A DNA stretch of 63,627 bases, the filler included, from an uncultured Myxococcia bacterium (GTDB lineage: Bacteria > CAZTWC01): NCBI GenBank assembly GCA_964617105.1. It is 3 parts of 3 records of this genome, joined end to end, with 100 filler letters (N's around TTAATTAATTAA, not from the genome) between each part and the next. Parts side by side here need not be neighbours in the genome. Positions count along the whole stretch, not along the records: positions 49,081 to 63,627 come from CAZTWC010000069.1; 2 more parts are not named here. One strand, 5' to 3'. Below are positions 24,505 to 63,627 of the stretch, in pieces (position 1 is the first letter of the stretch; each line of letters starts with the position of its first letter). Under the pieces are notes generated by a model. That model was not told the origin of the DNA, did no database searches, and saw nothing but the letters and a program-made list of their open reading frames with translations. Made by a program: the position numbers and the translations under genes.

Positions 24505-24604
24505 NNNNNNNNNNNNNNNNNNNNNNNNNNNNNNNNNNNNNNNNNNNNTTAATTAATTAANNNNNNNNNNNNNNNNNNNNNNNNNNNNNNNNNNNNNNNN
24601 NNNN
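24505..24604. other. Artificial contig-joining spacer
   Basis: N44-TTAATTAATTAA-N44 (stops in all six frames). Confidence 0.97.
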
Positions 24605-48980: not shown

Positions 48981-49080
48981 NNNNNNNNNNNNNNNNNNNN
49001 NNNNNNNNNNNNNNNNNNNNNNNNTTAATTAATTAANNNNNNNNNNNNNNNNNNNNNNNNNNNNNNNNNNNNNNNNNNNN
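48981..49080. other. Artificial contig-joining spacer
   Basis: N44-TTAATTAATTAA-N44. Confidence 0.97.
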
Positions 49081-49081
49081 T

Positions 49082-49981
49082 TTTCTGTATGTAGAGCGAA
49101 TCCTTTTATCAAGTTCTTTTTTTGATGGGAATTTTCCTTCGGACTTATCTATCAACCATTTTTTATGTCCTTCGCAGTCCTCTTGGGAGCCTTTTTTTCT
49201 ATTATTAATCCTGTTTGCTTTGATTGCTTTCTTCACTTTATGGCATCAGAGGAAATATGGGTGGACCTGGGGCAAAATCGGCTTAATGGTTCTGCTGGCT
49301 CTACACCTGGGACTACTTTTTTTGGGGAATTCATTACAGACGGTTTTGGTGGCTTTTCTTAAAAAGGAGGACGGTATTTTTGAAACTATTGGCGCTGGCA
49401 GCCTGCTTTTGACAGCAGTTGTGGCCATTTACCTGTTTTTTAAGATAACCATAAGATGGCGGTGGGGTTTTCTTTTTATAGGGGTCTTATTTTTATTGGG
49501 ATTTTTAGAGGAAATTAGTTGGGGATTTAGATGGTTCTCCATAGATATGAACTGGTTAATAAATCAGGAAATATTATACAATATTGTTGTAAGCGCCTTT
49601 GAGAGAGATCTCACCGGTGAGTTCAATTTTCACAACCTTCCCATAGTTGAAGATACTGAAGTGGAATCGATTTTTTGGCTCCTAAATTTTTTGGGTGGTT
49701 TTTTAGTGCTTAATATCTTGATTTACAAAAGAATAAAGATTCCGCTGGTTCAGAATTTGCTTGATTCTATTTTTCACAACCAGGTGTTATCCCTCTGGAG
49801 TCTTGGTATATTCTTATGTTCCAGCGGTTATTATCTGCGTGGTCCAATGGTTGAACCCAAAGTACGCTGGTTAATTTATCAGGAGTACTTTGAGGAGTTG
49901 GCAGAACTATTTTTCTCAGTCTATATTTTAATTCTTTTTCTATATATAGGTTGCTTTTGGTTAAAAAAAGTGCGCCAATAG
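49082..49981 (+). CDS. Multi-TM hypothetical membrane protein (5' partial)
   Basis: Frame is open from the contig start; KEDGIFE, EEISWG and NFHN motifs. Confidence 0.7.
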   Translation, partial: FLYVERILLSSSFFDGNFPSDLSINHFLCPSQSSWEPFFLLLILFALIAFFTLWHQRKYGWTWGKIGLMVLLALHLGLLFLGNSLQTVLVAFLKKEDGIFETIGAGSLLLTAVVAIYLFFKITIRWRWGFLFIGVLFLLGFLEEISWGFRWFSIDMNWLINQEILYNIVVSAFERDLTGEFNFHNLPIVEDTEVESIFWLLNFLGGFLVLNILIYKRIKIPLVQNLLDSIFHNQVLSLWSLGIFLCSSGYYLRGPMVEPKVRWLIYQEYFEELAELFFSVYILILFLYIGCFWLKKVRQ

Positions 49982-50033
49982 CCAGAGGGGATCATTCGAT
50001 CTCAGTTGGTACTCCGGATGGAAGGTAATAACG

Positions 50034-50450
50034 TTGTTTGATACCAGAAACAAATTAACTGAAGATTCGCCGTTGCCGCCGGATGGATGTACCGCCCTGG
50101 GAAGACACTTGACCATTGAGTATTATCGATGTACTTCAAAAGTCCTCTTAAATGAAGTCCTGGTTGAAAAGGCGTTGTTAAAAGCCGCTAATGAGAGTGG
50201 CGCCACTATTATCAACTCCTCCTTTCATAACTTTAATCCTCCGGGCGTAAGTGGAGTTGTTCTGATTGCCGAGTCCCATTTTACGGTGCATACCTGGCCC
50301 AAATACCATTATGCCGCCGTAGATATTTTCACTTGCGGAGAGAGCATAGACCTGGAAAAAGCCATAGATTCCATGAAGAGATCATTTGAATCGGATAATG
50401 TCTTCATTTCTTCTGATCAAAACCGGGGGATTATTACTAAGGGCGCTTAA
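50034..50450 (+). CDS. speD: S-adenosylmethionine decarboxylase proenzyme
   Basis: LGRHL, GVSGVVLIAESHFTVHTWP, AAVDIFTCG. Confidence 0.9.
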   Translation: MFDTRNKLTEDSPLPPDGCTALGRHLTIEYYRCTSKVLLNEVLVEKALLKAANESGATIINSSFHNFNPPGVSGVVLIAESHFTVHTWPKYHYAAVDIFTCGESIDLEKAIDSMKRSFESDNVFISSDQNRGIITKGA

Positions 50451-50493
50451 TTTGTGTACCTCGTTCACTGTGAGAGTGCAGGCGCCGAACTCC

Positions 50494-51027
50494 TCAACTG
50501 TTTTTTACTGCCTGGGAAAAAGGTGCATAGGCCCGCTGGTATTGGCGGGTATCCCGGAGGAAAGCCTTGGCAGGAGCCACATTTTCCGGATCAAAGGGAT
50601 CGAGCCGGGACAACTCGGTTTTGATGGCTCGGTGCAGCCGCCAGGCCATATCTCTGGCCGGCCCGAAAAGGGAAGATGAACAGGTTACGTCCATGAACAG
50701 GTGTCCCTCACCTTTACCCTTTTCCACCAGAGGGGTAATAGTCAGGGCCTGCTTCAGCAACTCCCGCATTCCCAGGGCGTAGAGCCCGTGGTTGGGAGGC
50801 AGCACTATCGCTCCCGGACAACGGTGGTGGGCCCGGGAAAGGAGCATCCCTTTGCGCACTCCTTCTTTGAAGGCCTCGTTGCTCATATCAAACACCAGAG
50901 CCCGGGCGATTCCAGCCGGCGCCACCACCACAGGCCGGCGTTTGAGAGAGGGGTCTTCGGCCTGCTCCATGGCCACTGCGAAGTGGGCGGCATTGATATG
51001 AATAATACGGCGATTTTGGATAAACAT
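50494..51027 (-). pseudogene. Truncated Y-family polymerase homologue (ImuB/DinB-like N-terminal fragment)
   Basis: RIIHIN..FAVAME..PSLKRRPVVV..GVRKGM..CP..TPLVE..GHLFMDVT; catalytic acidic residues absent; ends after ~175 aa. Confidence 0.7.
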
Positions 51028-51253
51028 GCTAATATCAGGCTGAAAAATTAAAGTTCGCTCCAAGATAGTATATTTACTACCCATCTTTAAGTTAGCACAC
51101 AAATGAGTGGTTTGCAGGTGAAGGTTGGAATTCTTGAGCTGTCATCCCCAGAAATTGGTTGAATGAATTATCATATAGTGGCAAGATATGTTCTTAATTT
51201 GTAGAATAAGGTTTAATCTTCTACGCCCGTTGCATACGGCCAGGAATCTAAAA

Positions 51254-52771
51254 ATGATAATTTATCGAGCAGTTATAATTTTGTTGATCCTGTTTTCATA
51301 TTCTTTCTATATATTTGCTCAGCCGGCAGAGGAATGGGATTTTAACGGCAAAGAGGATGAGTGGGTGGTAAAATTTATCTCCCAACCAGCCGGGGCAGTG
51401 GTGCTAAAGGATGGGGTGCTGTTATGCGCCAAGACTCCATGTTCAAGGCTGCTGACCAAAGGCAGGTGTGAAATATCCATGCAGGCGGAAGGGTATTTGG
51501 AACAGAGGAGGTCTATTTCAATTAGAAAGCATGAGATGATTTCCTGGAAACTGTTGCCCAATTTTGGCCTGCTGACAGTAAAGTCGGAGCCTGCCGGGAT
51601 CGATGTCAGTATAAATGGCGAAAATGTAGGACAAACACCACTTGTACGCAAGGAGATAGCGCCAGGAGGTTACCAGGTGTTGGCGACTTCACCTTGCTAT
51701 TACGATTCGGGTAAATTGGTGCGCATAAGTCGCGTTGGGGAGCATCAACAGGTTGAGTTTAAGTTAAACGAGCGTTACGGCGGAATCAAGGTAACGGCTG
51801 AGGATACTAAGGGCAACGCTTTAGAGGCCATGGCTTATGTGGATGGCAACTTTCTGGGTAATGTTCCCGGTAAATACAAGATATCGGTATGCGCAAGTGA
51901 TTTGGTGGTGAAAAGTTCCGGGTTTTTAAGTTTTCATACCAAGTTGGCCTTGCAGGAGAAGAAAGTAACCAGGATAACCGCCCGGTTTGATAAAATTGGC
52001 AAGCCCATGGAGTATATTTATTTCAAAGGAGGTTCTTTTTGGATGGGCAGCCGAACCTATGAAAAGGGGCGGGATTTAGATGAAACCAGACATCGGGTGA
52101 GATTAACCTACGGCTTTGATATGCTGCGTACCGAAGTTACTCAGGGGCAATACCTGGAGATTATGGGGTACAATAATTCTTATTTCTCCTTATGTGGTCA
52201 TGATTGTCCAGTGGAGAATGTCAGCTGGCATCAGGCGCTGCAGTTTTGCAATAAACTATCGCTCAGTAAGGGATATAAAGCCTGTTTTAATTGTTCTGAC
52301 AACAATAATAGCCAAATCATCTGTAAACTGAAAAAGAATTATAAAAAACCTCAAGATTGTCCGGGATTTCGTTTGCCCACCGAGGCGGAGTGGGAGTATG
52401 CCGCCAGGGCGGGTTCTAAGACCGCCTATTACTGTGGTAATAACAGCCGGTGTTTGGAAAAAATAGGCTGGTATTTTGGCAATTCAAAAAGCAGTACCCA
52501 CCGGGTAGGTCAGAAAAAGGCTAATGCCAGGGGTCTGTATGATATGAGCGGAAATGTATGGGAGTGGTGTTGGGACTGGTATTGGGACTATAGCCTCAAG
52601 GTGTTGGATCCAGTGGGACCGGCAGCAGGTTCTGGCAGGGTGGTAAGAGGAGGTAGTTGGCCAGGGATCGCCAAGTTTAGTCGATCTGCCAGCCGGGGCA
52701 AAGATTCGTCCGGGCGGCGTGGCGGTGCTTTGGGTTTTCGGGTGGTGAGGACAATTCCTACAAAACGCTAA
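51254..52771 (+). CDS. Exported PEGA-repeat protein with an FGE-sulfatase (SUMF1/C-type lectin fold) domain
   Basis: SQPAGA and SEPAG PEGA repeats; RLPTEAEWEYAARAG, GLYDMSGNVWEW, RGGSW..GFR. Confidence 0.9.
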   Translation: MIIYRAVIILLILFSYSFYIFAQPAEEWDFNGKEDEWVVKFISQPAGAVVLKDGVLLCAKTPCSRLLTKGRCEISMQAEGYLEQRRSISIRKHEMISWKLLPNFGLLTVKSEPAGIDVSINGENVGQTPLVRKEIAPGGYQVLATSPCYYDSGKLVRISRVGEHQQVEFKLNERYGGIKVTAEDTKGNALEAMAYVDGNFLGNVPGKYKISVCASDLVVKSSGFLSFHTKLALQEKKVTRITARFDKIGKPMEYIYFKGGSFWMGSRTYEKGRDLDETRHRVRLTYGFDMLRTEVTQGQYLEIMGYNNSYFSLCGHDCPVENVSWHQALQFCNKLSLSKGYKACFNCSDNNNSQIICKLKKNYKKPQDCPGFRLPTEAEWEYAARAGSKTAYYCGNNSRCLEKIGWYFGNSKSSTHRVGQKKANARGLYDMSGNVWEWCWDWYWDYSLKVLDPVGPAAGSGRVVRGGSWPGIAKFSRSASRGKDSSGRRGGALGFRVVRTIPTKR

Positions 52772-52799
52772 TTAATAAAGTTGACACCCGGCTTTGCCC

Positions 52800-54296
52800 C
52801 TAAGGCATTGACCTCACGACACGTAAACCCAGGCGGGGGTGACGGGTGATGGGCGATTTGCTGCTGCGAGACGCCGACCGGCATTTGCGGGCTAAGTCGT
52901 CCCAACTACCGCCGCGCATAACCCGTTTTTGTGTGTCACTAGAAGGTCCCACAGGGTCTGTTACATCTCCTCCATAACTATCATACCAATCCCACGCCCA
53001 CTCATCAACATTGCCGCTCATATCATACAATCCCCCGGTATTGGCATCTTTGCTTCCCACATCATGTGTCGTAGCATCGAAATTATAACAATACCATCCT
53101 ATCTTATCAAGATTGGGATCATGTTTACAAGAGTACCCTGAAGAAGTAATCCCACCATTATAAAACGCCGTAGTCGTACCCGCACGAACTGCATACTCCC
53201 ACTCCGCCTCTGTGGGTAATCGATAGCCACTGCAATCCTGTGGTTTGCTGAACTTGGACTTTAAACTGCATGTCAAACAAGTTACGTCACAATATCCACG
53301 ACGGCACGGAGCCTGACTGCAATCTCCTGTACAGTCAAAACATTCTTCAACTCCTTTACTAATAGACAATTTGTTGCAATATAATAACGCTTCATGCCAA
53401 TTCACCTTCTCTGCCGGACAATCATCTCCACAAGATGAAAAATAACTAGGATTATAGCCCATCAATGATTTAAACTGACCCTGTGTCACCTCGGTGGACT
53501 GCATCTCGAAGTTGTACGTCAACGTCACCAGGTGCTCAGTTTCATTAGAATAGCGGCCAGCCTCGCCAGAGGGGCTGCCCATGGTAAAGGTGCCCTTGGT
53601 AATGCTTACAAATCCGGGGGTTATACCACTTGAACCATCTTTACAATTCGAGTTATCATACCCAGTACAGTCACTCTTGCACTTAGCATCTCCGCTTGTA
53701 TATGTTGAATTTATGTCCTTACAACCCTTTGTGTCACCGTCACAGACTTCATTTTTGCCTTTATGACCATCTCCACACACTGTTTGGCATTTTGAATCCT
53801 TACATTGCAAGGGCTCAATACAATTGGCAGTTTGGGAACATGTATCACCCTCAACACTATTTGTAGTAGTCGGCTGACAATTACCATTTATACATTTCTC
53901 TTTCTCCCCACACTCCTTATCCTCTGCATAGCCACTTTCGTCCGACTTGCACACCATAACCTTATTGCCATCGCATTTTTTCTGGCCAGCGGTACAGATT
54001 TGATCTTCACTCCCACCATCTGTATTTCCCGAGTTACCTTCTTTACTCCCACCATCTGTATTTCCCGAGTTACCTTCTTTACTTCCGCCATCTGTATTGC
54101 CAGAGTTACCTTCTTTACATACACAAATATCCCATCCACTTCCATCTGATTTACAGGCCTGAACACCCTTTTGAACAGCAGTACAGTTACAAACCTGCGT
54201 TGCACTTGGCGTACAAGCCTTGTCAACCTCAGTTCCGCAGTTTGCTAAAAACAGACTCAGAGCAATCAATAAAAACATTGTGAATGATTTTTGCAT
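52800..54296 (-). CDS. Cys-rich lipoprotein with a C-terminal FGE-sulfatase domain
   Basis: Lipobox LANC; Cys-rich stalk; RLPTEAEWEYAVRAG, GLYDMSGNV, RGGSW; AGGAG RBS. Confidence 0.9.
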   Translation of the reverse strand: MQKSFTMFLLIALSLFLANCGTEVDKACTPSATQVCNCTAVQKGVQACKSDGSGWDICVCKEGNSGNTDGGSKEGNSGNTDGGSKEGNSGNTDGGSEDQICTAGQKKCDGNKVMVCKSDESGYAEDKECGEKEKCINGNCQPTTTNSVEGDTCSQTANCIEPLQCKDSKCQTVCGDGHKGKNEVCDGDTKGCKDINSTYTSGDAKCKSDCTGYDNSNCKDGSSGITPGFVSITKGTFTMGSPSGEAGRYSNETEHLVTLTYNFEMQSTEVTQGQFKSLMGYNPSYFSSCGDDCPAEKVNWHEALLYCNKLSISKGVEECFDCTGDCSQAPCRRGYCDVTCLTCSLKSKFSKPQDCSGYRLPTEAEWEYAVRAGTTTAFYNGGITSSGYSCKHDPNLDKIGWYCYNFDATTHDVGSKDANTGGLYDMSGNVDEWAWDWYDSYGGDVTDPVGPSSDTQKRVMRGGSWDDLARKCRSASRSSKSPITRHPRLGLRVVRSMP

Positions 54297-55341
54297 AATT
54301 AAGACTCCTGTAAGATTTCACATTAGTTGATATAAATTAAAGCATAAATCACATCACTAATGCAAGCAGTATGATATTTTTCATACACATGCCCAGAAGT
54401 TTCTTCATACTGTGCAGTAGTTGCAATTTCTATATCACCACTAACCACACCGATATTTACAGGGATTTTAAATCTACAAGCGCCGACTGACTCCCCAAAG
54501 CAGACCAAAAACAGAAAAATTCTCAGACTTTTTAGAGACTATTCTGAGACTTCTCTTTTCCGTTTTCGGGTTGGGACCGATACGGTCTCAACGCTCCTAG
54601 AAATTGGCAAATCTCTGGTTAACAGCGACAGCGAATATGTTAATACCCATTCTCCGCTGACCAACTGCTGGGTCTTTGATGTCCACTGTTTGCCCCTTCA
54701 CTTCACCTCCTGTCACCTTCAACTTGCGTTTATTTTCAAAGAACTTTTGGCCGCAAAAACGATCAATTTTTCATGTTTTGTGGTGTCTCGCTCGTGGTTG
54801 GCAAGTACAGTGAGGATTATTATCTTGGGCATAAATCGGAATGGGTGATGGGAGATGACCAGGAGTGTGGAATGTGAGTTTGAAATTTTTCGGTAATTAT
54901 GATAATTGTCAAAAACAACTTGATGCCTGAATTTATATTGTTTGAAATATTCCCAGTGAGGTGATTATGCGTAAGTTATTTGGATTGAGTTTATTAGTTT
55001 TTTTGAGCATTGTTTTGACTTATTGTGGTTCATCAAGTGATGGCAAAAAGACTTGTGAATCGGGTGCAACGCAGGTTTGTAACTGTACTGCTGAGCAAAA
55101 GGGTGTTCAGGCCTGTAAATCAGATGGAAGTGGCTGGGATATTTGTGTATGTAAAGAAGGTAACTCTGGCAATACAGATGGTGGGAGTGAAGAAGGTAAC
55201 TCGGGAAATACAGATGGCGGTAGTAAAGAACAAATCTGTACCGCTGGCCAGAAAAAATGCGATGGCCAAAAGGTGATGGTGTGCAAGTCGGACGAAAGTG
55301 GCTATGCGGAGGATAAGGAGTGCGGGGAGAAAGAGAAATGT
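53892..55341. repeat. Long inverted repeat pair, 53892-54205 and 55064-55341
   Basis: Near-identical sequence on opposite strands (314 vs 278 bp); the difference is one 36-bp unit. Confidence 0.93.
54009..54116 (-). repeat. 36-bp coding tandem repeat x3 (KEGNSGNTDGGS); x2 in the copy at 55153-55224
   Basis: Units 54009-54044, 54045-54080, 54081-54116. Confidence 0.93.
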
Positions 55342-55356
55342 CAGGAGGTCAAATAA
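54967..55356 (+). pseudogene. Truncated paralogue of the 52800 lipoprotein (different signal peptide, no FGE domain)
   Basis: Lipobox LTYC; ~90 aa almost identical to the 52800 stalk; homology stops at 55341, directly at the next gene's AGGAGG. Confidence 0.75.
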
Positions 55357-55357
55357 T

Positions 55358-56287
55358 ATGCCAGGGATTGGAGTAGTATCAAATCCAAACTCCCGACAGA
55401 ATCGCAAAAATCCAAGGCGGATCCCTATCCTGGGATATATTGTCGGTGAAATGGGGGCTAATGAGGCTACCAAGGATGTGGATGATATCAACAGAGTGGC
55501 GGTAATTTTCAAACAGCATGATATAGATATCCTATGCCTCAATGGCGGTGACGGAACCAACCACTGCACCTTAACCGCTTTTATTAAGGCATATAAAGAA
55601 AAGCCCTTGCCTCTGATAGCTTTTTTGCGCGGCGGAACCATGAACACTATCTCCAATTCTATCCGGATAAAGGGCAACCCCGCCTCTATCTTACATAACA
55701 TTGTGGAGAAATACCATTACCATGAGCCTTTTCAGTTGGTAGAGCGAGATACCATAAAAATTGGCGATGATTATGGCTTTATTTTTGGCAATGGTGCCAC
55801 CTACAACTATCTGGATGAGTATTACAGTACTGGAAATCCCTGTCCATGGGTGGGATTTACTACTTTGGTGAGGTGTCTAACCGCTGTTGTTACCCGTAAT
55901 GCCATGTTCAAGAGGTTGGTAAAACCTTTTAATGCTGAGGTTTATGTTGATGGTAAAAAATGGCCCCATTCGACTTATATCGCGGTTTTTGGTGCCACCA
56001 TCGAGCAGTTGGGTCTTGGTTTCAAGCCCTTTCATCGCTGCGATGAGCAGTCCAGAACTTTCCATTTATTGGGAGTGGTAGGTTCACCATTGCAGACATT
56101 ACGTCATTTTCCTACCATGTATAAAGGGAAGCAGGTTCCCAGAAATGTGATGATAGATGCAGTGGCCAAAAAGGTTAAGTTTCGTTCCCGGGAGCCTATA
56201 AACTATATGATCGATGGTGATTTGCACCAGGGGGGCAATAGTTTGGATCTGGAAGTGGGGCCGCGGTTAAAACTGATAGTCCAGTGA
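55358..56287 (+). CDS. Diacylglycerol/lipid kinase family protein
   Basis: NPNS, NGGDGT, GGTMN, IDGD; AGGAGG RBS before the ATG at 55358. Confidence 0.88.
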   Translation: MPGIGVVSNPNSRQNRKNPRRIPILGYIVGEMGANEATKDVDDINRVAVIFKQHDIDILCLNGGDGTNHCTLTAFIKAYKEKPLPLIAFLRGGTMNTISNSIRIKGNPASILHNIVEKYHYHEPFQLVERDTIKIGDDYGFIFGNGATYNYLDEYYSTGNPCPWVGFTTLVRCLTAVVTRNAMFKRLVKPFNAEVYVDGKKWPHSTYIAVFGATIEQLGLGFKPFHRCDEQSRTFHLLGVVGSPLQTLRHFPTMYKGKQVPRNVMIDAVAKKVKFRSREPINYMIDGDLHQGGNSLDLEVGPRLKLIVQ

Positions 56288-56289
56288 TC

Positions 56290-56709
56290 TCAATTATCAA
56301 GCTTGTCCTGGTCATCGGAAAATATTTGCTCCAGTTTTTTCTCTTTGCAGAATACCACATATACCACTGGAGGTAGAATGACCGAACTTATTATGCCCAG
56401 GTAAAAGCCCAGGCCTGGTTGGAAATCTGGATAGGTAAAAAATAGCCACCAGGCGGTGCAAAACTCCAGCAGGGAGAGTATGGCGAGCACCAGGTCCAGG
56501 TGCCATTTAAAGATGTAAACTGATATGGCCATAGCCAGGATAATGGCGGCCAGGAGATAGTAGATAAACCCGCCCACGCCCATTTGCAGGGGTTTTATCA
56601 GCAGGATATGTCCCGAGTTCGGATCTATCTGGATGGTCCAGTATATGTCAGCGCTACCAAAGATAAAAACCGCCAAAACGGCATAGATTATTTTTAGATG
56701 TTTATGCAT
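56290..56709 (-). CDS. Hypothetical 4-TM membrane protein
   Basis: Hydrophobic ORF; start at MHKHLK avoids overlap with the next gene. Confidence 0.6.
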   Translation of the reverse strand: MHKHLKIIYAVLAVFIFGSADIYWTIQIDPNSGHILLIKPLQMGVGGFIYYLLAAIILAMAISVYIFKWHLDLVLAILSLLEFCTAWWLFFTYPDFQPGLGFYLGIISSVILPPVVYVVFCKEKKLEQIFSDDQDKLDN

Positions 56710-56785
56710 AATAAATAGTTCGATAACATCATTGACAACAAAGATCAATAAAAGGCTTTCGACTTTTATAAAAGGCAAATAGATT

Positions 56786-58300
56786 ATGGATAGAAATAAG
56801 ATAAATATTACCCGGGCCAAAGGGATGCAGGATGTAGGGCCGGAGTTGCAACTGGAACGGCAGAGTGTGGCTGACCAGGTGATTCAGTGTTTTCGTTCCT
56901 ATGGCTATGATCCCATTGATCTGCCTACCATAGAACCCTATGAATTATATTCTGGTATTTATGGAGATTACACCAGGCAGCAATTATTTACCCTGGTAGG
57001 ACAGCGGGAATACTCCCTGCGTCCCGATATGACCGCTTCAGTGGCTAGAATGATCAACCATAACCTGGTTCAGGGAAAAGAGGAAAACTGTCGCGGGATG
57101 TCCCGGGTATATTATTCGGGCAAATGTTTCCGTTTTATAAACCCCAGGAGATATAGGTTCAGGGAATATTGGCAAGTGGGCGGTGAATTATTTGGCAGCC
57201 CGGAACCTTTGGCGGAGATAGAACTTCTGAGTTTCATCAGCAGCCTGATGGTTAAACTTAACATAGATAATTATTACCTGCTGGTGGGTGATGTAAAGTT
57301 GTTCCGCACCATCTTGGAGAAGGTATCCCCATTACCATACAAAGACACCTTGTTCAGGGATTTAATCAGGCTGGGAGGGATAATCCATCGTCTTTCACGG
57401 GCCGATGAGCATTATCTCAAATCATTATTGCAGCAACTTACCAAACTGAGATATTCTCTTTCAACCATGTTTAATGATGTTCCCAAAGCAGAATTAAGTG
57501 AAGAATCTTATGATTTGTCACCAGGGGATAAACAGGAAATTGAAGCCCTGAGCCAGTGGGCTTTGGACCTGTTCAAATACAAATGGAATAAAATATTTTC
57601 TGTTTCTCAAGAAGATTGCCAACTTTTGGGCCAGTTAATAAGTATTAAAGGAGATTGGCAGGAGATTAAATCTATGCTTTTGGATTTGCAAAAGAGATAC
57701 AGTCTGGATATTTGTCTGGATAGGCTGGAATCTATCAGTAACCTGAGCGTTGATTTAAAAATAGGCTCTTTTGTAATTGCTCCGGCCATGTCCAGGGGGC
57801 TAGACTATTACAGTGGAGTAGTTTTTGATCTTCATGTGCCGGCGTTGGGAGTAGATTCAGATGTTTGCGGAGGTGGGCGGTATGATAATTTGATCCCCTG
57901 GCCGCAACCAGGGGACGGGTACCTGCCGGCCGCGGGTCTATCCTTTGGCATAGAGCGTCTTACCGAAGCAGTAAGAGCCTGCCGGGGAGAGGTAGATATT
58001 TCTGGTCCTCCACGGGTGATTGTCAATATGGGTGACCAACAACACTATTGGAAAATGATAAAATTAGCGGATCGATTGCGCCAAAGATCTCTAAATGTGG
58101 AGTTGCAAATTGAGCCGCAAACCGAGAGTAAAACCATATTTAAATTACCAGATAGAGAACCGGATTTAATTATTCATCTTTTAGACTCTGGTGAGGGTAA
58201 GCAGTTGAATATTTCTACCGGCAAAGGCCGGCAATTGGCCCAGGTTGAGGAAAAAGAGATCTATAATTACCTGGATAACTACTTTGCCAATAGAGGTTAA
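56786..58300 (+). CDS. Divergent histidyl-tRNA synthetase / HisZ-like protein
   Basis: KGMQD, LRPDMTASVAR, FR..P..RFREYWQVGGE, RGLDYYSGVVF, GGGRYD, AAGLSFGIERL; degenerate anticodon-binding domain. Confidence 0.8.
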   Translation: MDRNKINITRAKGMQDVGPELQLERQSVADQVIQCFRSYGYDPIDLPTIEPYELYSGIYGDYTRQQLFTLVGQREYSLRPDMTASVARMINHNLVQGKEENCRGMSRVYYSGKCFRFINPRRYRFREYWQVGGELFGSPEPLAEIELLSFISSLMVKLNIDNYYLLVGDVKLFRTILEKVSPLPYKDTLFRDLIRLGGIIHRLSRADEHYLKSLLQQLTKLRYSLSTMFNDVPKAELSEESYDLSPGDKQEIEALSQWALDLFKYKWNKIFSVSQEDCQLLGQLISIKGDWQEIKSMLLDLQKRYSLDICLDRLESISNLSVDLKIGSFVIAPAMSRGLDYYSGVVFDLHVPALGVDSDVCGGGRYDNLIPWPQPGDGYLPAAGLSFGIERLTEAVRACRGEVDISGPPRVIVNMGDQQHYWKMIKLADRLRQRSLNVELQIEPQTESKTIFKLPDREPDLIIHLLDSGEGKQLNISTGKGRQLAQVEEKEIYNYLDNYFANRG

Positions 58301-58301
58301 A

Positions 58302-60407
58302 TTGAAAAAGAGAAAGTTGAAAAAAACAGCCAAAATAGAGGACCGTGATTGTCTTTTTTTAGGTCAGGACAATTTGTCTATTGAGCAGGTGGTGGAGGTA
58401 GCCAGGTTCAGACAACGGGTTAAACTTCATCCGCAGGCAAAAGAGCGGATGATGATCTCCAGACAGGTGGTTGATCAGTTGGTAGACAGAAAAATAAAAG
58501 CCTACGGGATAACCACCGGTTTTGGTTCTTTACGCGATGTGGTGATTGATGATCCAGAAGAGAGCAGGCAACTGCAGGCCAACCTGATAAGGAGCCACTC
58601 CTGTGGTGTAGGCGATCCATTGCCCGAGGATACTGTGCGGGCCATGATGCTGCTGAGAGCCAATACTCTGGCCCAGGGATATTCAGGCGTCCGCCCCCAG
58701 ATAGTGGAAAGGCTGCTGTTTTTCCTGAATGCTGATATCTACCCCTATATTCCGGAAAAAGGCTCGGTAGGCGCCAGCGGGGATTTGGCGCCCCTATCCC
58801 ATTTGGCTCTGGTGCTTATTGGCGATCAAGAGGGATTGGTATATGCTCCTTCTGGCCATGAATCACCCACCCTTCGGGAAGGTGATTTTATCTCCCACCC
58901 ATTGCCGGTGAATTTTAAAATCACTGCTGCTCAACTGCACCAAACCATGGAGATAGAACCCATCCAATTATTTGCCAAGGAAGGATTAGGTCTTAATAAC
59001 GGCACTCAGATGATGGCTGCTGTGGCTGCCTTGAATATCTATGATTGCCAGCGTTTGATTCAGATGGCAGAGTTGGGTTTTGCTATGAGCCTGGAGGCCT
59101 GTAAAGGGGTAATTGACGCCTATTTACCAGAGATCCATCAAGCTCGGGGTTTGCGGGGACAAATAGAGTGTGCTGCTCGGGTTATGGATTTTATCAGCGA
59201 CAGTGAACTATTGCGATACCCCATTAATTTGGCCTACTTATACCGGGCGATCAACAACTTGCAGGGTATATTCCAGGTGTTGGATAACTACCGCCAGATA
59301 GATTGGAGTGCCGATGAGTCAGTCATTCCCGAAGCCCAGGAGATGGTAAAAAAGATCAAAAGGGAGTTGGAAGAGTTGTATAACTCTCCTCTCAAGGTTT
59401 TTAAACAGCAAACCGGCCTGAACCCCGGCAAATTATCCAAACATGATCTGTGGCGAAATTTTCGGATCATAACCATGGAACATTTGCGCCGCCTAAACCG
59501 GGTATTCCAGTTTATATGTTCCCCCTCGTTTCCACCAGAAGTAGCCAGTATACAAAATTTAATGACTATTGCCCTGAACGAGGTGGAAAAGGTAGTGCCC
59601 AGTATGATGCCAGTTCAGGATGACTATTCCCTGAGATGTACTCCCCAGGTTTATGGAGTTATGCGGGATACTTTGCGTTTTGTAAACGATATTGTTACTG
59701 CTGAATGCAATGCTGCCAACGATAACCCCTTGATATTTCCGCCGCCGGAAATGGCGAGGAGAAGAGAGGGCGCCTCAGAATGTACCAATGAGATGTTGCT
59801 TAACTCTTTCAAATCGGGAGGCAATTTCCACGGCGAGCCTTTGGCCACGGCCATGGATTATCTGGGTATTGTCACTTGCCAATTGAGCAATATTATCGAG
59901 CGGCGAATAGCCCATATGTTGGACAGTAACCGCAATAACGGTTTGCCCACATTGCTGGTGGAGCATTACGGACTAAATTCTGGTTTTATGATACCGCAAT
60001 ACACTGCCGCCGCCCTGGTGAGCGAAAGTAAACTACTCTCCCATCCGGCCAGCGTGGATTCCATCCCCACTTGTGAGAACGCCGAGGATTATGTTTCTAT
60101 GGGGCCTATTGCTGTCCAGAAATGCCGGCGGATTATAGAGAATACCGAGCACATTTTTGCTATAGAACTTATCTGCTCCTGGCAGGCTCTTCACTTCAGA
60201 GGAGTCAGGCCCAGCAAGGTCAGCTTGCAACCCTCCTGCAGCGTAAGAAATCTCTATGAATTGATTGTGCAGGAAGGTTTTGAATTTGTGGAAAAAGACC
60301 AGGTCCCCTACAGCAAGATCAACAAAATGGTGGCCATGATCCGCAGCAATAAGATCGTCAACTTGGCCAGGCATATGAGTGATCTATGTAAGATAGACTA
60401 TTTATAG
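58302..60407 (+). CDS. hutH: Histidine ammonia-lyase (MIO-dependent) with a large insertion
   Basis: YGITTGFG, LIRSHSCG (SH = His specificity), GSVGASGDLAPL, KEGLGLNNGT, QDDYSLRC, GGNFHG; probable TTG start after GAGG. Confidence 0.85.
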   Translation: MKKRKLKKTAKIEDRDCLFLGQDNLSIEQVVEVARFRQRVKLHPQAKERMMISRQVVDQLVDRKIKAYGITTGFGSLRDVVIDDPEESRQLQANLIRSHSCGVGDPLPEDTVRAMMLLRANTLAQGYSGVRPQIVERLLFFLNADIYPYIPEKGSVGASGDLAPLSHLALVLIGDQEGLVYAPSGHESPTLREGDFISHPLPVNFKITAAQLHQTMEIEPIQLFAKEGLGLNNGTQMMAAVAALNIYDCQRLIQMAELGFAMSLEACKGVIDAYLPEIHQARGLRGQIECAARVMDFISDSELLRYPINLAYLYRAINNLQGIFQVLDNYRQIDWSADESVIPEAQEMVKKIKRELEELYNSPLKVFKQQTGLNPGKLSKHDLWRNFRIITMEHLRRLNRVFQFICSPSFPPEVASIQNLMTIALNEVEKVVPSMMPVQDDYSLRCTPQVYGVMRDTLRFVNDIVTAECNAANDNPLIFPPPEMARRREGASECTNEMLLNSFKSGGNFHGEPLATAMDYLGIVTCQLSNIIERRIAHMLDSNRNNGLPTLLVEHYGLNSGFMIPQYTAAALVSESKLLSHPASVDSIPTCENAEDYVSMGPIAVQKCRRIIENTEHIFAIELICSWQALHFRGVRPSKVSLQPSCSVRNLYELIVQEGFEFVEKDQVPYSKINKMVAMIRSNKIVNLARHMSDLCKIDYL

Positions 60408-60444
60408 AATGCGGATGCATCTTCACCGGCGCCTCCACATTCTA
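60405..60444. repeat. Short internally deleted relative of the 40480 palindromic element
   Basis: TAGAATGCGGATGCATCTTCACC-GGCGCCTCCACATTCTA shares both ends with the dnaK element. Confidence 0.75.
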
Positions 60445-60593
60445 ATCCCCAATTTGTGCGAACTAATTTTTGAGCAAGCCCTAAGGGCGAGCCTAAAATT
60501 TTATCGTTGATATGGGTAAACAATCAGTTCTTGATTCGTAGCAATAAAATCTATAATTTGGTCAGGCAGATGAGGGGTAGAAACTGTGAGATG

Positions 60594-60938
60594 TCACAAA
60601 CCAATAACTTTTGTTAAGGCCATTGATACAGTATTTAAGTCATAAAGAGACAGTAACTCTATTTCCGACAACAAACGACTTTTGTCAATTGCCCTTACTT
60701 GGTCAATTATCGCTATTACATTTTTGTTCATACATTCTACATTGACTGTAATTGGAGGAAAAGCATTTGTTGACGAGGATAAAGGTATAACAATAACTGT
60801 TCGCCGCTTTTCATTAATGACATTGTTGCCAATAATGACCACAGGTCGTTTCTTTTTTATCTCTGAGCCACGTGTAGGATCCAGGTCTGCCCACCAGATA
60901 CTTCCGCGCAAAAATTCTTTTTTCACGCTTTCTCCCAA
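60594..60938 (-). CDS. mazF: MazF/PemK family toxin
   Basis: RGSIWWADLDPTRGSEIKKKRPVVII..DQVRAIDKSRL. Confidence 0.92.
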   Translation of the reverse strand: MGESVKKEFLRGSIWWADLDPTRGSEIKKKRPVVIIGNNVINEKRRTVIVIPLSSSTNAFPPITVNVECMNKNVIAIIDQVRAIDKSRLLSEIELLSLYDLNTVSMALTKVIGL

Positions 60939-61180
60939 GGTTCAGTGACAGTATTTTCTAGTGCTTGGAATTCGGTTTCAACTATTTTTAAATCAGATTC
61001 TTTGTTCGCTGCTTCACAGGCCTTGGCCAGAGCGAGTTCTTGCTTTTTGATTTCTTGTTCCATAAGTGTGGCTATTATTTTACTCCTTTTTCTGTTTGGG
61101 ATCAAAGCAGAGAAGCGAAGAAAAATAGTTTGCGGGATAGTAAAAGTGGCTCTTACTTTATGCTCATGTGATCTGTTCAT
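60923..61180 (-). CDS. Putative cognate antitoxin (RHH-like)
   Basis: 85 aa, overlaps the toxin start; beta-helix-helix N-terminus, acidic C-terminus. Confidence 0.75.
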   Translation of the reverse strand: MNRSHEHKVRATFTIPQTIFLRFSALIPNRKRSKIIATLMEQEIKKQELALAKACEAANKESDLKIVETEFQALENTVTEPWEKA

Positions 61181-61201
61181 ACTTCATACTTATCATATGC
61201 G

Positions 61202-61849
61202 TCATAAAAAGTCAACAGTGGATTTCAGCCAGTCACACCACGGGCTTAGTCCTTCGCCGGTTTTGCAGGAGAGGGGAAAAGCGTTAGCCGTGGGATTTAT
61301 TTTCTTTAGTTTTTCCAAAAAATCGGGGACATCAAAATCTACATAGGGGACCAGGTCAATTTTATTGACGATTACCACCTGGCTTTCCATGAACATCAAA
61401 GGGTATTTGTCTATTTTATCCAGCCCTTCGGGTGTGCTGGTAAGCATTACCTTGCAGTGTTCACCCAAATTGAATTCCGCCGGACAGACCAGGTTACCCA
61501 CATTTTCGATGAACAGCAGATCCAGTTCTGCGGGCAGGTCAGCGCGGCATTTGGCGATCATATTGGCATCAAGATGACAGGCGCCGCCAGTGTTGAATTG
61601 CACCACTGGTATTCCTAATTCACCCAAAAGACGGGCATCGTTATCTCCCTGGATATCACCTTCAATAACACCGATTTTGACCTTCTCTTTCAGAGGGGAT
61701 ATGGTTTTGGCCAAAAGACTTGTTTTACCCGCACCGGGTGAGGACATTACGTTGATCACAAAAGTATGGTCAGCATCAAATCTTTTGCGGTTGTCCAGGG
61801 CTAATTGGTCGTTAGCAGCCAGAATATTTTTTACTACTTTTATTTTCAT
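61202..61849 (-). CDS. hypB: Hydrogenase nickel incorporation GTPase HypB
   Basis: SSPGAGKT, GGACHLDA, ENVGNLVCPA, NKID. Confidence 0.96.
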   Translation of the reverse strand: MKIKVVKNILAANDQLALDNRKRFDADHTFVINVMSSPGAGKTSLLAKTISPLKEKVKIGVIEGDIQGDNDARLLGELGIPVVQFNTGGACHLDANMIAKCRADLPAELDLLFIENVGNLVCPAEFNLGEHCKVMLTSTPEGLDKIDKYPLMFMESQVVIVNKIDLVPYVDFDVPDFLEKLKKINPTANAFPLSCKTGEGLSPWCDWLKSTVDFL

Positions 61850-61862
61850 AATATTTTCCTTC

Positions 61863-62207
61863 TTAATCCTCTACTTCCACCGAAATGATTTCCAACTCCC
61901 TGCCGGCGATAAGTTCAGTGTCTATACTGGAACAGTTGGGGCAAACCGGACTGTAATCGCGGGGAGTGAATATCTGGTGGCAATCGCGGCAACGGCTTTG
62001 GGCTTGCACTTTATCAAAGTTGAGGGAAGAGTTGCAAAACTGTTTTGATTCCGCAACCATCACCTGATAAACAAAGTTTAAATTATCTTCTTTCAAGTGG
62101 CTCCACTCACCCAGACGGATATTGATCCCAATAATTTTTTTTTCTCTGACTTGCTTTACTTGCCGGACAGAATCAATTATGGCTTGAGCGATGGAAACTT
62201 CGTGCAT
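61863..62207 (-). CDS. hypA: Hydrogenase nickel metallochaperone HypA
   Basis: MHEVSI; CRDC..CPNC; GREL. Confidence 0.95.
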   Translation of the reverse strand: MHEVSIAQAIIDSVRQVKQVREKKIIGINIRLGEWSHLKEDNLNFVYQVMVAESKQFCNSSLNFDKVQAQSRCRDCHQIFTPRDYSPVCPNCSSIDTELIAGRELEIISVEVED

Positions 62208-62219
62208 GGTAAGTGGGGT

Positions 62220-63557
62220 TCAATAATATTTGGTAAAACTTGTTACTATATCTCGGAGCAGGTCCTCCACCTCTATATTGTTCCGGGAGGCAATTTGGAT
62301 CAGGTTGTCATACTCCATTTCTGAGAATTTTAACGGTAATTCCTGGTTTAAATGTGCTTCCCGGTTGAGAGCTTTTACCTGCGATTCAACAATTTCCTCC
62401 GCATCTTCTATAATTTCGATATCGTCTGAAATATTTTTTCCAGTCTCCGAGTCCTTCAGTTCTGTATAACCGCCGGAAGAAAATTGTTGAGTGGCAGAAA
62501 TCTTTAATTTGCTTATTTTGCCTTTTATCCTTTTTTTGTCCCGTTCCATCTCCTGGTTGAACAACTGGCGGATAAAATTAGCCAAATGGAGATTGCTGGG
62601 GGTGAAAATATGTTGGGATAAAAAGGAATCTATATCGTATTGCATATCCCAGGCGTTTTTGTAGCGTTGGCGTTTGTCGNNNNNNNNNNCCAGGGCTTTC
62701 ATAATAATATGTTCAACTGCCTCGGGAATATCAGCCTTAAAGTAACTGGGCGGGTATATTTTTCCTTCCATTACCGACTTGAGAATCTGCATTTCGTTAT
62801 CACCGGTAAATATTTTATACCCGGTCATCCACTCGTAGAGAACTACCCCCAGGGAGAAAATATCGGAACGATGATCCAGGAGTTCGGCCCGGCATTGCTC
62901 AGGTGACATGTAACACAATTTTCCTTTGATTTCGCCGGCTTTGGTATGCTCCAGTTGAGTATGAGCCTTGGCTATACCGAAATCGGTGATTTTTACATTA
63001 CCGTCAAAAGAGACCATGATATTTTCCGGTGAAATATCACGGTGAACAATGGTTAACGATTTTCCTTCGGCATCGGTTTTGTTGTGGGCGTAATATAGAC
63101 CCTCGCAGACGCTGCTGGCTATCTTGAGGGCGTATTCCATAGGAAAGGGGATCTCCAACTCCTGCGAGCGGGGGAAAATTTGGCGCATGTCGCGGCCAAA
63201 GACGTATTCCATGGCAATGAAGTGCCATCCGTGCTGCTGGCCCACTTCGTAGACGCCCACCAGGTTTGAGTGGCGCAGCTTTGCGGCAACCTGCGCTTCA
63301 CAGAAGAACCGCTCCGTATCCGCCTGCGTGGCCTGCTGGCCCGCCAGGATCATCTTCACGGCGGCGATGCGGTCGAGGCCTTTTTGCTCGGCCCGGTAGA
63401 CGATCCCCATGCCGCCGCGCCCGATTTCGTCGAGGAGCACGTAGTTGCCGATGTCCGTTCCCTTGAGCGGTGGCCAGACGATCTTCTCGCGTATGATGGG
63501 ACGGACGGGGGCTCTGCGATCCGAGTTCTCAGCGAGAACTGTCTCCGTTCCGGTCAT
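62220..63557 (-). CDS. Hanks-type Ser/Thr protein kinase (N gap at 62680-62689; 5' part probably chimeric)
   Basis: GRGGMG, AVK, HRDISPEN, DFGIA, YMSPEQ, DIFSLG. Confidence 0.85.
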   Translation of the reverse strand: MTGTETVLAENSDRRAPVRPIIREKIVWPPLKGTDIGNYVLLDEIGRGGMGIVYRAEQKGLDRIAAVKMILAGQQATQADTERFFCEAQVAAKLRHSNLVGVYEVGQQHGWHFIAMEYVFGRDMRQIFPRSQELEIPFPMEYALKIASSVCEGLYYAHNKTDAEGKSLTIVHRDISPENIMVSFDGNVKITDFGIAKAHTQLEHTKAGEIKGKLCYMSPEQCRAELLDHRSDIFSLGVVLYEWMTGYKIFTGDNEMQILKSVMEGKIYPPSYFKADIPEAVEHIIMKALXXXXDKRQRYKNAWDMQYDIDSFLSQHIFTPSNLHLANFIRQLFNQEMERDKKRIKGKISKLKISATQQFSSGGYTELKDSETGKNISDDIEIIEDAEEIVESQVKALNREAHLNQELPLKFSEMEYDNLIQIASRNNIEVEDLLRDIVTSFTKYY

Positions 63558-63627
63558 TTCCTTCAGGGTCTGCAGATGCGGGGCTTTCCCATCGAGATCA
63601 GGGAGCGTCTCGTCCCGTGTGCCCCTG

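Follow-up and report, generated by a model that had tools for sequence, protein, structure and literature searches.

A divergent histidyl-tRNA synthetase paralogue directly upstream of histidine ammonia-lyase: a possible histidine-binding partner of histidase in an apparent histidine auxotroph

In a marine bacterium, a divergent paralogue of histidyl-tRNA synthetase (HisRS), here called P0001, is encoded directly upstream of a long histidine ammonia-lyase (HAL, histidase). We hypothesize, with somewhat less than even confidence, that P0001 binds histidine without charging tRNA and serves histidase as a partner or sensor. This reading is supported by the anatomy of the operon, the residues that were retained or lost, the his genes that were not found, a separate hisS, a hutU-hutI pair and the recurrence of the linkage in other lineages. 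Such a pairing in an apparent histidine auxotroph suggests a novel means of sensing histidine ahead of its breakdown.

The window, i.e. the whole stretch of DNA analysed (63,627 nucleotides), joins three contigs with N spacers, so only positions 49081-63627 represent the true neighbourhood of the pair. This contig of 14.5 kb belongs to a genome that is 96.5% complete (G000). The two genes and their upstream surroundings are:

56290..56709, minus strand: divergently transcribed ORF of 139 aa, hydrophobic, small membrane protein; context only (sequence read)
56710..56785, plus strand: AT-rich intergenic region of 76 bp, presumed promoter region of the two-gene unit (sequence read)
56786..58300, plus strand: P0001, 504-aa HisRS/HisZ-family paralogue with catalytic core, enlarged helical insertion domain and diverged C-terminal domain (PF13393, E 2.6e-43)
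58292..58304, plus strand: coupling junction with AGAGG at 58292-58296, TAA at 58298-58300, one base, TTG at 58302-58304 (ORF reading)
58302..60407, plus strand: long-form histidine ammonia-lyase of 701 aa, from the sole PF00221 locus of this genome (PF00221, E 1.6e-168)

The original prediction placed the TTG start of HAL 1 nt past the HisRS-like stop, with no hisG or hutU/I/G adjoining. Both statements agree with our reading: the ORFs run from ATG at 56786 and from TTG at 58302, and none of these his or hut genes lies on the 14.5-kb contig. The AGAGG, a putative ribosome-binding site for HAL, sits inside the P0001 ORF, and together with the spacing of one nucleotide it fits translational coupling. 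The unit is bounded by the divergent gene upstream, in whose product Pfam found nothing significant, and by a convergent MazF-like gene downstream. Promoter and terminator scans of the unit did no better than shuffles, and no T-box, riboswitch or other leader RNA matched Rfam at E<=1 across 55000-61500. Contigs from four public DNA runs of two studies span the junction with 0 differences; the runs are not fully independent, because one may be the source sample. Population variation across the locus, sought for a selection test, likewise came to 0 differences among the contigs of four runs, at low depth. Eight public runs are listed for the locus, RNA among them 0.

The lyase carries two features of importance:

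58773..58781, plus strand: Ala158-Ser159-Gly160, the MIO-forming tripeptide (GSVGASGDLAPL aligned with P. putida HAL)
59214..59582, plus strand: helical insertion of ~123 aa, residues 305-427, which defines the long-form HAL family (breaks in Pfam and PDB alignments)

By its motifs, HAL looks catalytic. AYGI, RSHS, GASGD, NGTQ, QDDYSLRC, GGNFH and ENAEDYVSM align with P. putida HAL, with the catalytic motifs unchanged; we take these to hold the MIO Ala-Ser-Gly, the histidine-specific Ser-His and the catalytic Tyr, Asn, Gln, Arg, Phe and Glu. Among 21 long HALs, Ser159 and Gly160 never vary and Ala158 hardly does. The protein scores 563 bits with the NF006871 subfamily model (above 524) and 527.1 bits with the TIGR01225 equivalog model (cut-off 539.15), which it narrowly misses because the insertion splits the match. 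Pfam and PDB alignments are interrupted between residues 304 and 428-437, where the structural model (pLDDT 86.6 for the whole protein) places five helices (310-429), for the most part at pLDDT >90. No PDB HAL covers this insertion (TMq 0.65 against TMt 0.89-0.90), and an ESM Atlas search with it returned aromatic-lyase clusters only, all <0.9.

The following parts of P0001 are essential for the argument:

57125..57175, plus strand: motif 2 with the adjoining loop (residues 114-130), CFRFINPRRYRFREYWQ (column comparison with 263 relatives)
57341..57754, plus strand: enlarged insertion domain, all-helical, about 140 aa, residues 186-323 (AlphaFold2, pLDDT mostly >90)
57794..57886, plus strand: histidine-binding RGLDYY (residues 337-342) and motif 3 GGGRYD (362-367) (motif reading)
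58001..58297, plus strand: alpha/beta domain at the C-terminus (residues 406-504), in the position of the anticodon-binding domain, sequence strongly diverged (AlphaFold2, block-mean pLDDT 68-94)

P0001 stays below the cut-offs of both relevant models, with 220.5 bits for hisS (TIGR00442, cut-off 286.75) and 181.6 bits for hisZ (TIGR00443, cut-off 271.65). A canonical hisS resides on another contig (321.7 bits with TIGR00442); P0001 is thus a divergent HisRS/HisZ paralogue, as proposed, and the idea that it is the genome's only HisRS is rejected. Contamination as the origin of a second hisS was rejected as well, since contigs C27 and C69 have GC content and tetranucleotide make-up typical of the bin. 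AlphaFold2 predicts the full three-domain HisRS fold with confidence (pLDDT 92.1, pTM 0.90), and the best Foldseek matches of the model are full-length HisRS structures. Orthologues of P0001 were not found; the closest non-self match is 30% identical.

The histidine loops were said to be kept, motif 2 altered, the insertion domain enlarged and the anticodon domain eroded. The first three descriptions are accurate. The fourth stands for sequence, with PF03129 undetected by Pfam even at E<=10, but not for architecture, as AlphaFold2 still predicts an alpha/beta C-terminal domain, in which Arg432 is retained. PF03129 is present in all other full-length HisRS-type proteins scanned and absent from the 386-aa HisZ of genome G104. 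The insertion region aligns in hhalign with the insertion domain of a profile of ~500-aa HisRS-like proteins, which we call clade X (a working name, not a curated family).

In motif 2, P0001 reads FRFINPRRYRFREY where relatives have FRYERPQxGRYREF. Arg116, Arg124, Arg126 and Gln130 are retained, while the acidic residue became Ile118, the Gln Arg121 and the Gly Tyr123. Across 263 relatives the acidic position holds E/D in 94% and Ile in 0/263, and Gln and Gly reach 88% and 89%; the substituted residues of P0001 occur at 0-2%. The acid is missing in 17 of 273 aligned rows, and nine of these 17 are P0001, the G104 HisZ and seven members of clade X. In E. coli HisRS, the motif-2 loop reads the G-1:C73 end of tRNA-His. 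Judged from its sequence, P0001 is probably no longer a normal ligase. Its binding core tells another part of the story. RGLDYY and GGGRYD lie in columns with at least 91% conservation among relatives. Of the 34 columns whose conservation reaches at least 90% in the 263 HisRS relatives, P0001 retains 31, including T83, R116, R124, R126, Q130, R337, Y341, Y342 and GGGRY. It thus has three mismatches, as many as the canonical hisS of the genome (3), whereas the G104 HisZ has 8. Since these columns are kept despite a long branch (2.3-2.6 changes per column; median 0.62-0.68), we conclude that the binding core is under selection and the gene not decaying.

Because all ATP-binding arginines are kept, P0001 may still have an enzymatic role. 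It could be a second, divergent and active histidyl-tRNA synthetase, co-expressed with histidase, which would let tRNA charging keep up at times when histidine is abundant and being degraded. We regard this as unlikely. Conservation of the core, with all ATP- and histidine-binding arginines and equal to that of canonical hisS, speaks for it, as do the predicted three-domain architecture, the less-diverged clade X members that exceed the hisS cut-off (349-381 bits) and the single tRNA-His of the genome, which is ordinary (G-1 encoded, C73). However, P0001 itself does not reach that cut-off, Ile at the acidic position is without parallel among the relatives, the motif-2 loop is rewritten and PF03129 is undetected. 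Moreover, the genome already possesses a canonical hisS, and the very long branch of P0001 argues for changed constraint.

Histidine metabolism of the host brings us back to the histidase partner. Neither hisG (TIGR00070) nor hisD or hisB (IGPD) was found in the 96.5%-complete genome, and HisA/F gave nothing above cut-off, while 14/14 control genomes were positive in these searches. The organism is therefore probably a histidine auxotroph. On contig C50, hutU (943 bits) is followed by an amidohydrolase, the probable hutI. HAL, described earlier as stand-alone, is so only with respect to its own contig; the genome has the next hut genes elsewhere. Because HAL keeps its motifs, is the sole aromatic lyase and is complemented by this hutU-hutI pair, the gene next to P0001 controls entry to a real catabolic pathway. 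With canonical hisS present and the his genes not found, P0001 is needed neither for charging nor for ATP-PRT. It is not a HisG partner either, as hisG was not found, and a classical HisZ role is rejected on the same his-gene results.

HisZ nevertheless offers a close analogy. In this classic example, a paralogue of a tRNA synthetase has become an allosteric subunit, which works at the entry to histidine synthesis. HisZ comprises about 320-390 aa, with the HisRS catalytic core but no anticodon-binding domain. Like HisZ, P0001 is a HisRS paralogue with the histidine pocket kept and the motif-2 acid lost (as in the G104 HisZ). It is not the tRNA ligase of the cell, and its gene lies tight beside that of the first enzyme of a histidine pathway. 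There are also clear differences. P0001 has a C-terminal domain, absent from the G104 HisZ, keeps far more of the HisRS core than that protein and misses the hisZ cut-off; its genome has no detected hisG, and the neighbouring enzyme is catabolic instead of biosynthetic. From canonical hisS, with which P0001 shares the predicted three-domain fold and both histidine motifs, it differs in its score, the motif-2 acid and loop, the undetected PF03129 and its being a second copy.

In the phylogeny, P0001 falls into an 18-row clade together with clade X (SH-aLRT 97%), on a very long branch and with a long-branch warning involving P0258. Comparison of profiles by hhalign points the same way, giving 331 against clade X (420 columns) and 239 against the group of HAL-adjacent hisS. 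That P0001 is a fast-evolving descendant of the latter group was rejected by the AU test (p 0.006, for a group chosen with the tree already in view), and hhalign favours clade X. Loci of clade X contain a short hisG in 5/13 cases, a further likeness to HisZ, and an EF-1alpha-like GTPase in 8/13. HAL is nearby in only 2/13, which argues against the histidase-partner reading.

The GTPase bears on a second enzymatic possibility. P0001 might be an aaRS-like ligase that activates histidine as histidyl-adenylate and then, in place of tRNA-His, loads the histidyl group onto a small molecule or a protein, within a short pathway that includes the MIO enzyme. Some aaRS paralogues do transfer amino acids to other acceptors, and in P0001 the adenylation residues are kept and the elements expected to contact tRNA changed, which would suit such a ligase, as would the GTPase beside its relatives. 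Yet the closest match to this GTPase in G000 is 30% identical, so no close homologue is there. Also, the 14.5-kb contig has neither a carrier-protein or NRPS gene nor one for a transferase or tailoring enzyme, and a HAL with the Ser-His signature and all HAL motifs in a genome with hutU-hutI fits plain catabolism. We consider this ligase improbable.

The hisG-containing loci of clade X instead raise the question of descent. P0001 could be an orphaned HisZ-like relic of a histidine gene island (hisS-HAL-hisZ-hisG) that survived the loss of the his pathway. Its proximity to HAL would then be historical and the two proteins non-interacting, with P0001 serving an unrelated role or being slowly lost. 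An island of exactly this order exists in G104, the his biosynthesis genes were not found in G000, and the clade that P0001 joins is often located beside a short hisG; the very long branch and lack of detected orthologues are also in line with it. We still hold it to be a minority explanation of rather low probability. The ORF is intact over 504 codons, the binding core has persisted through about 2.5 changes per column, the gene is still coupled to HAL at 1 nt and no decay is visible in the low-depth contigs of the four runs. Further, the G104 HisZ falls in a different clade and sits downstream of HAL, whereas P0001 is upstream.

A possible course of events under the preferred reading, in which P0001 is a partner or sensor of histidase, is as follows. 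P0001 would have arisen as a HisZ-style offshoot of the HisRS family, any HisG partner being lost. Its active site would still bind histidine, and probably ATP, but would no longer charge tRNA-His. Produced together with the cell's only histidase from one putative two-gene operon, it might bind the HAL tetramer or control HAL otherwise. Histidine would then be degraded only when the free pool is high, and translation would thereby be protected in an organism that presumably imports all its histidine.

Linkage between HisRS-family genes and HAL is not confined to this genome. A HisRS-family gene directly adjoins HAL on the same strand in ten others (G104, G415, G402, G403, G169, G033, G045, G041, G209 and G360), compared with 0/80 loci in a background set of ordinary ~500-aa HALs, taken from the contig scan with the long-HAL alignment. 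In G104, G415, G402 and G403, the hisS has the same position and strand relative to the long HAL as P0001. The neighbourhood survey that had been proposed thus gave a divided answer: the adjacency recurs, but with housekeeping hisS, and without a detected orthologue of P0001. In seven other genomes the HAL neighbour is the only hisS that passes TIGR00442, which counts in favour of an active HisRS, and the arrangement may simply be a matter of co-regulation. Among long HALs of family f266, 0/5 have a HisRS-family neighbour, so a long HAL does not need such a partner. Full-text literature searching found no description of hisS-HAL gene pairs.

A physical link between the two folds is known from plants. 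Cytosolic HisRS of plants carries an N-terminal HAL-like domain, as the original prediction stated for some of them; this domain is described as without the Ala-Ser-Gly triad and thought to be non-catalytic, and the HisRS part as the working enzyme (PMC7564348). By that description, the plant protein resembles our pair in linking a HisRS fold to a HAL fold, with two distinctions: P0001 and HAL are neighbouring genes instead of one chain, and here it is HAL that looks catalytic and the HisRS-like part that is degenerate.

One could go further and imagine HisRS-fold proteins as general physical partners of histidase. Housekeeping HisRS in several bacterial phyla, and in the present genome a dedicated paralogue that does not charge tRNA, would attach to HAL and apportion histidine between translation and catabolism, and the plant protein would be a fused fossil of this complex. 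This is speculative and we judge it quite unlikely. If it were true, it would be the catabolic mirror image of HisZ-HisG. Apart from this wider idea, a related paralogue tied to the start of histidine breakdown in a cell unable to make histidine would carry the paralogue-as-subunit principle of HisZ over from synthesis to catabolism, and would illustrate how such an auxotroph safeguards an amino acid in short supply. For the puzzling HAL-like domain of plant HisRS, the hisS-HAL gene pairs that recur in bacteria offer a way in by experiment. Even without binding, P0001 and HAL present a clean case of a synthetase paralogue under selection after the loss of its known partner.

Fused HisRS-HAL proteins were not found among proteins of 883-2520 aa (weak evidence), where the one match was a HisZ-HisG-HisD fusion. 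An apparent HAL-aminopeptidase fusion in G370 proved to be two adjacent genes in different frames. In the HAL tree, the rows of G370 and G433 were left out of consideration because their reading frame was wrong. Another known reuse of the HisRS fold as a sensor instead of a ligase is GCN2, a eukaryotic protein whose HisRS-like domain is fused to a kinase and senses uncharged tRNA; nothing on P0001 points to tRNA binding. Foldseek also lists this GCN2 domain (8t7t) for P0001, at rank 44 with E 2e-23.

Contig C20 occupies positions 1-24504 of the window, C21 positions 24605-48980 and C69 positions 49081-63627 (the entire 14,547-bp contig). Since the three contigs, all from one metagenome-assembled genome, are joined by N spacers, genes flanking 24505-24604 and 48981-49080 are not neighbours. 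The HisRS/HisZ-family paralogue P0001 and the long-form histidine ammonia-lyase gene (HAL) form a pair on C69, and the relevant features are the following:

15012-15021, 24505-24604, 48981-49080 and 62680-62689: runs of N
56290-56709, minus strand: 139-aa hydrophobic ORF directly before the pair
56786-58300, plus strand: P0001, 504 aa, from ATG at 56786 to TAA at 58298-58300
58302-60407, plus strand: HAL, 701 aa, with TTG start at 58302, one base past the P0001 TAA

Upstream of the pair lie, in order, an AdoMet decarboxylase, an IMS/DinB fragment, two FGE-sulfatase-domain proteins, a weak DAGK_cat-like protein and the hydrophobic ORF; downstream follow a MazF-like toxin, HypB, HypA and a Ser/Thr kinase, each on the minus strand. 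Because of this gene order and strandedness, we regard the pair as a unit of two genes, preceded by 76 bp of AT-rich sequence. An AGAGG sequence is located at 58292-58296, within the 3´ end of P0001; no site of this type precedes TTG 58317, the next candidate HAL start, and conserved HAL sequence starts at about residue 17-25. The junction of both genes is spanned, with 0 differences, by contigs from four public DNA runs, which belong to two studies of marine/seawater metagenomes and one of which may be the source sample. When re-read, the ORF coordinates, the 1-nt gap between stop and start and the TTG start of the original prediction, like its other sequence-level statements, were all correct. 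Two of the surrounding genes deserve a separate remark. The toxin ORF (60594-61180, minus strand) is MazF/PemK-like (PF02452, E 3.4e-26) and is directly preceded by an 85-aa ORF without Pfam match, possibly an antitoxin. The 202-aa IMS/DinB ORF (50494-51102, minus strand) contains no more than the N-terminal portion of the polymerase domain (PF00817 positions 3-128 of 148) and may be a truncated gene.

P0001 matches PF13393 in Pfam and scores under both curated cut-offs (220.5 against 286.75 for hisS, 181.6 against 271.65 for hisZ). AlphaFold2, run with an 83-row alignment, confidently predicts full HisRS architecture (pLDDT 92.1, pTM 0.90). Besides the catalytic core, the model shows an insertion domain of ~140 aa composed entirely of helices (186-323) and an alpha/beta domain at the C-terminus. 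Foldseek ranks structures of full-length HisRS first (human 4phc, T. acidophilum 1wu7), with HisZ (3od1) and the HisRS-like domain of GCN2 (8t7t) lower in the list. We aligned P0001 with 263 relatives and considered the 34 columns conserved in at least 90% of them. P0001 retains 31 of these, which equals the canonical hisS of the same genome, and the genuine HisZ of genome G104 misses eight. The retained residues include T83, R116, R124, R126, Q130, R337, Y341, Y342 and GGGRY, and the acidic positions 81 (Asp) and 134 (Glu) carry residues common among the relatives. In motif 2 (fRxE), the acid, which is E/D in 94% of relatives, is replaced by Ile (found in none of the 263), Gln (88%) by Arg and Gly (89%) by Tyr. 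The acid is absent from 17 of 273 aligned rows: P0001, the G104 HisZ, seven members of clade X, as we call the HisRS-like clade closest to P0001, and eight further proteins (five of 474-502 aa, three of 423-429 aa). PF03129 is present in all other full-length HisRS-type proteins scanned and was not detected in P0001 even at E<=10.

In short, the sequence points to a preserved ligand pocket combined with a rewritten motif-2 loop and anticodon domain, which we take to be the two parts of HisRS that contact tRNA-His. P0001 might be a ligase handing histidyl-adenylate to another acceptor; we find this improbable.

The second gene of the pair encodes a histidase (PF00221, E 1.6e-168). Its score exceeds the NCBIfam HAL subfamily model (563 against 524) and stays just under the hutH equivalog cut-off (527.1 against 539.15), the latter because an insertion splits the match. 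Alignment with P. putida HAL revealed retained GASGD (MIO triad), RSHS (Ser-His pair), AYGI, NGTQ, QDDYSLRC, GGNFH and EDYVSM motifs, whose residues presumably have the same roles as in the P. putida enzyme. Residues 305-427 are predicted with high confidence to form an additional five-helix domain, which has no counterpart among solved HALs. Long-form HALs constitute a large family: the best 120 matches listed among 90%-identity clusters are nearly all 615-752 aa long and 38-48% identical, some bearing names of Myxococcota, Planctomycetes, Ca. Alcyoniella, Ca. Lernaella and Fermentibacteria.

The genome harbors no other aromatic lyase. The original prediction called the histidase stand-alone; this is true of C69, where hutU, hutI and hutG are missing, but not of the genome, as contig C50 carries hutU (943 bits) and, after it, an amidohydrolase gene, probably hutI. 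Most simply, HAL thus catalyses the first step of an ordinary Hut pathway. A search for a separate hisS, suggested at the outset, yielded a canonical gene on contig C27 (321.7 bits, PF03129 present), so P0001 is not the sole HisRS; neither C27 nor C69 stands out from the bin in GC content or tetranucleotide composition. Aragorn found 36 tRNAs, among them one ordinary tRNA-His(GTG) with encoded G-1 and with C73. The likewise suggested search for hisG (TIGR00070) returned no match in this draft genome, rated 96.5% complete, nor did those for hisD (TIGR00069) and IGPD (PF00475), and PF00977 (HisA/F) had no match above cut-off; all 14 control genomes were positive for each family. Because four pathway genes are missing together, the organism is likely a histidine auxotroph and HisG is removed as a partner of P0001, although absence from a draft genome falls short of proof. 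On C27 (L226:9391-10107, beyond the window), ~3 kb from the canonical hisS, there is also an NpmA-like 16S rRNA (adenine1408-N1) methyltransferase (PF24675, 194.6 bits).

We tentatively suggest, at somewhat less than even chance, that P0001 is a histidine-binding subunit or sensor of HAL, in putative contact with it. Its reading frame is uninterrupted, the binding core has persisted over a very long branch and the tRNA-facing parts are rewritten. Further, there is no HisG, a separate hisS exists, the arrangement fits translational coupling to the only histidase and the host is a probable auxotroph. P0001 would then be a HisZ-style subunit either re-partnered with HAL or acting as its sensor, and histidine catabolism would begin solely at histidine surplus.

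P0001 is an orphan: beyond a 307-aa fragment that is nearly identical and lies on a contig of 1.5 kb, its best match among 1.84 billion cluster representatives is 30% identical (E 8e-46). Samples of 40 and then 400 genomes across the bacterial domain gave canonical HisRS only, plus one 514-aa protein of G054. Trees built from 65 and from 68 rows give P0001 a terminal branch of 2.3-2.6 changes per column, where the median is 0.62-0.68. P0001 nests inside clade X (~500-aa proteins) with 95-97% SH-aLRT, a placement that comes with a warning from the tree program about contact with the long branch of P0258. The placement agrees with hhalign (331 against clade X, 239 against the HAL-adjacent hisS group), whose alignment with clade X extends through the insertion domain. 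Canonical hisS of the genome falls into another well-supported clade, shared with every HAL-adjacent hisS. Joining P0001 to the HAL-adjacent hisS genes, a group named after the tree was seen, was rejected by the AU test (delta lnL 63.6, p 0.006).

Among 13 metagenome loci of clade X (from the set L145-L157, L174 and L182), short-form hisG is adjacent in five and an ordinary-length HAL is near in two (L174, divergent at ~270 bp; L147, at 3.3 kb). Because less-diverged members, at 349-381 bits, exceed the hisS cut-off and the motif-2 Glu persists in some of the clade, clade X may comprise HisZ-like proteins, bifunctional ones or true ligases. The G054 gene, in the order paralogue-hisG-hisS, comes from neither clade X nor the hisS clade; its own clade also includes the G104 HisZ. 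With hisG beside some clade X genes and missing from the host, P0001 may be a HisZ-like remnant of a histidine island, orphaned and placed beside HAL for historical reasons only; we consider this unlikely, the preserved binding core and the tight junction with HAL being the features on which the subunit or sensor reading draws. In eight of the 13 loci, an EF-1alpha-like GTPase (NF008969, 423-479 bits, cut-off 502) lies directly downstream of the clade X gene. This linkage of a HisRS paralogue and an elongation-factor paralogue may be a separate system.

Pairing of HisRS-family genes with HAL is conserved at the family level, in a form different from that of P0001. From the 400-genome sample we fetched nine HAL loci, eight chosen for long open frames and one (G033) since both genes had already been seen on one contig. 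A HisRS gene immediately adjoins HAL on the same strand in seven of them, and in all seven genomes it is the sole gene passing TIGR00442 (350-385 bits). In the phylum of G104, three further long-HAL loci (G415, G402 and G403) all have an upstream hisS-type gene, its aligned part stopping 69-84 nt short of HAL; a fourth contig does not extend far enough for a judgement. Long HALs of this type have a HisRS-family neighbour in 6 of 12 loci and in five of six families; of the six loci without one, that of G323 is on a contig that stops 690 bp past HAL. None was found in the five long-HAL loci of family f266. A second HAL clade (G033, G045, G041, G209, G360; three of the five genomes are one family) likewise has hisS upstream. 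As background, 8 of 80 ordinary HAL loci with flanks up to 6 kb contain any HisRS-family match, the closest ~2.2 kb from HAL. Among the unselected 30 best HAL loci with 1.5-kb flanks, four have a match: G104, G169, G243 (opposite strand) and our genome. The most telling case is G104 (L135), with a tight row hisS-HAL-hisZ-hisG whose junctions are very short or overlapping in longest-ORF calls. Four of five HAL-bearing genomes checked (G169, G370, G323, G033) lack hisG. Altogether, at least 10 genomes of several families have a housekeeping hisS that directly adjoins HAL in the same orientation (L135, L227-L229, L137, L133, L138-L141), the only-copy check covering all but G415, G402 and G403.

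This recurrence raises the alternative that P0001 is an additional HisRS which still charges tRNA-His and is co-expressed with HAL in the manner of hisS in other genomes. The conserved columns, retained as in the canonical hisS, speak for it and the rewritten tRNA-facing parts against it; we hold it to be unlikely. Anything else about P0001 takes the leftover probability. A bolder general reading, that HisRS and HAL form a complex, is possible but improbable.

Plant cytosolic HisRS, mentioned in the original prediction as carrying a HAL-like domain in some cases, is indeed described in print with such a domain, ~400 residues long, N-terminal, without Ala-Ser-Gly and of unknown function (PMC7564348). 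Linkage of bacterial hisS or HisZ with hutH was not described in the literature searched, judged mainly from titles and abstracts. Both kinds of components, a HisRS/HisZ paralogue and a histidase, are already known; within that literature, the novelty is their combination, in which an orphan paralogue lacking a HisG is coupled to a HAL of the long form, amid recurrent hisS-HAL synteny and the plant fusion.

Some long HALs have other neighbours. In G370 (L134, ~10.8-12.1 kb) an aminopeptidase-P-like gene (AMP_N and Peptidase_M24) directly follows HAL, and in family f42 a clostripain-family peptidase of 1,079-1,107 aa adjoins it, which hints at a peptide-degrading setting. We also encountered a 933-aa HisZ-HisG-HisD fusion (P0392), in which a HisRS-like domain is joined to HisG and histidinol dehydrogenase; its record, assigned to a freshwater mussel, may stem from a contaminant or symbiont.
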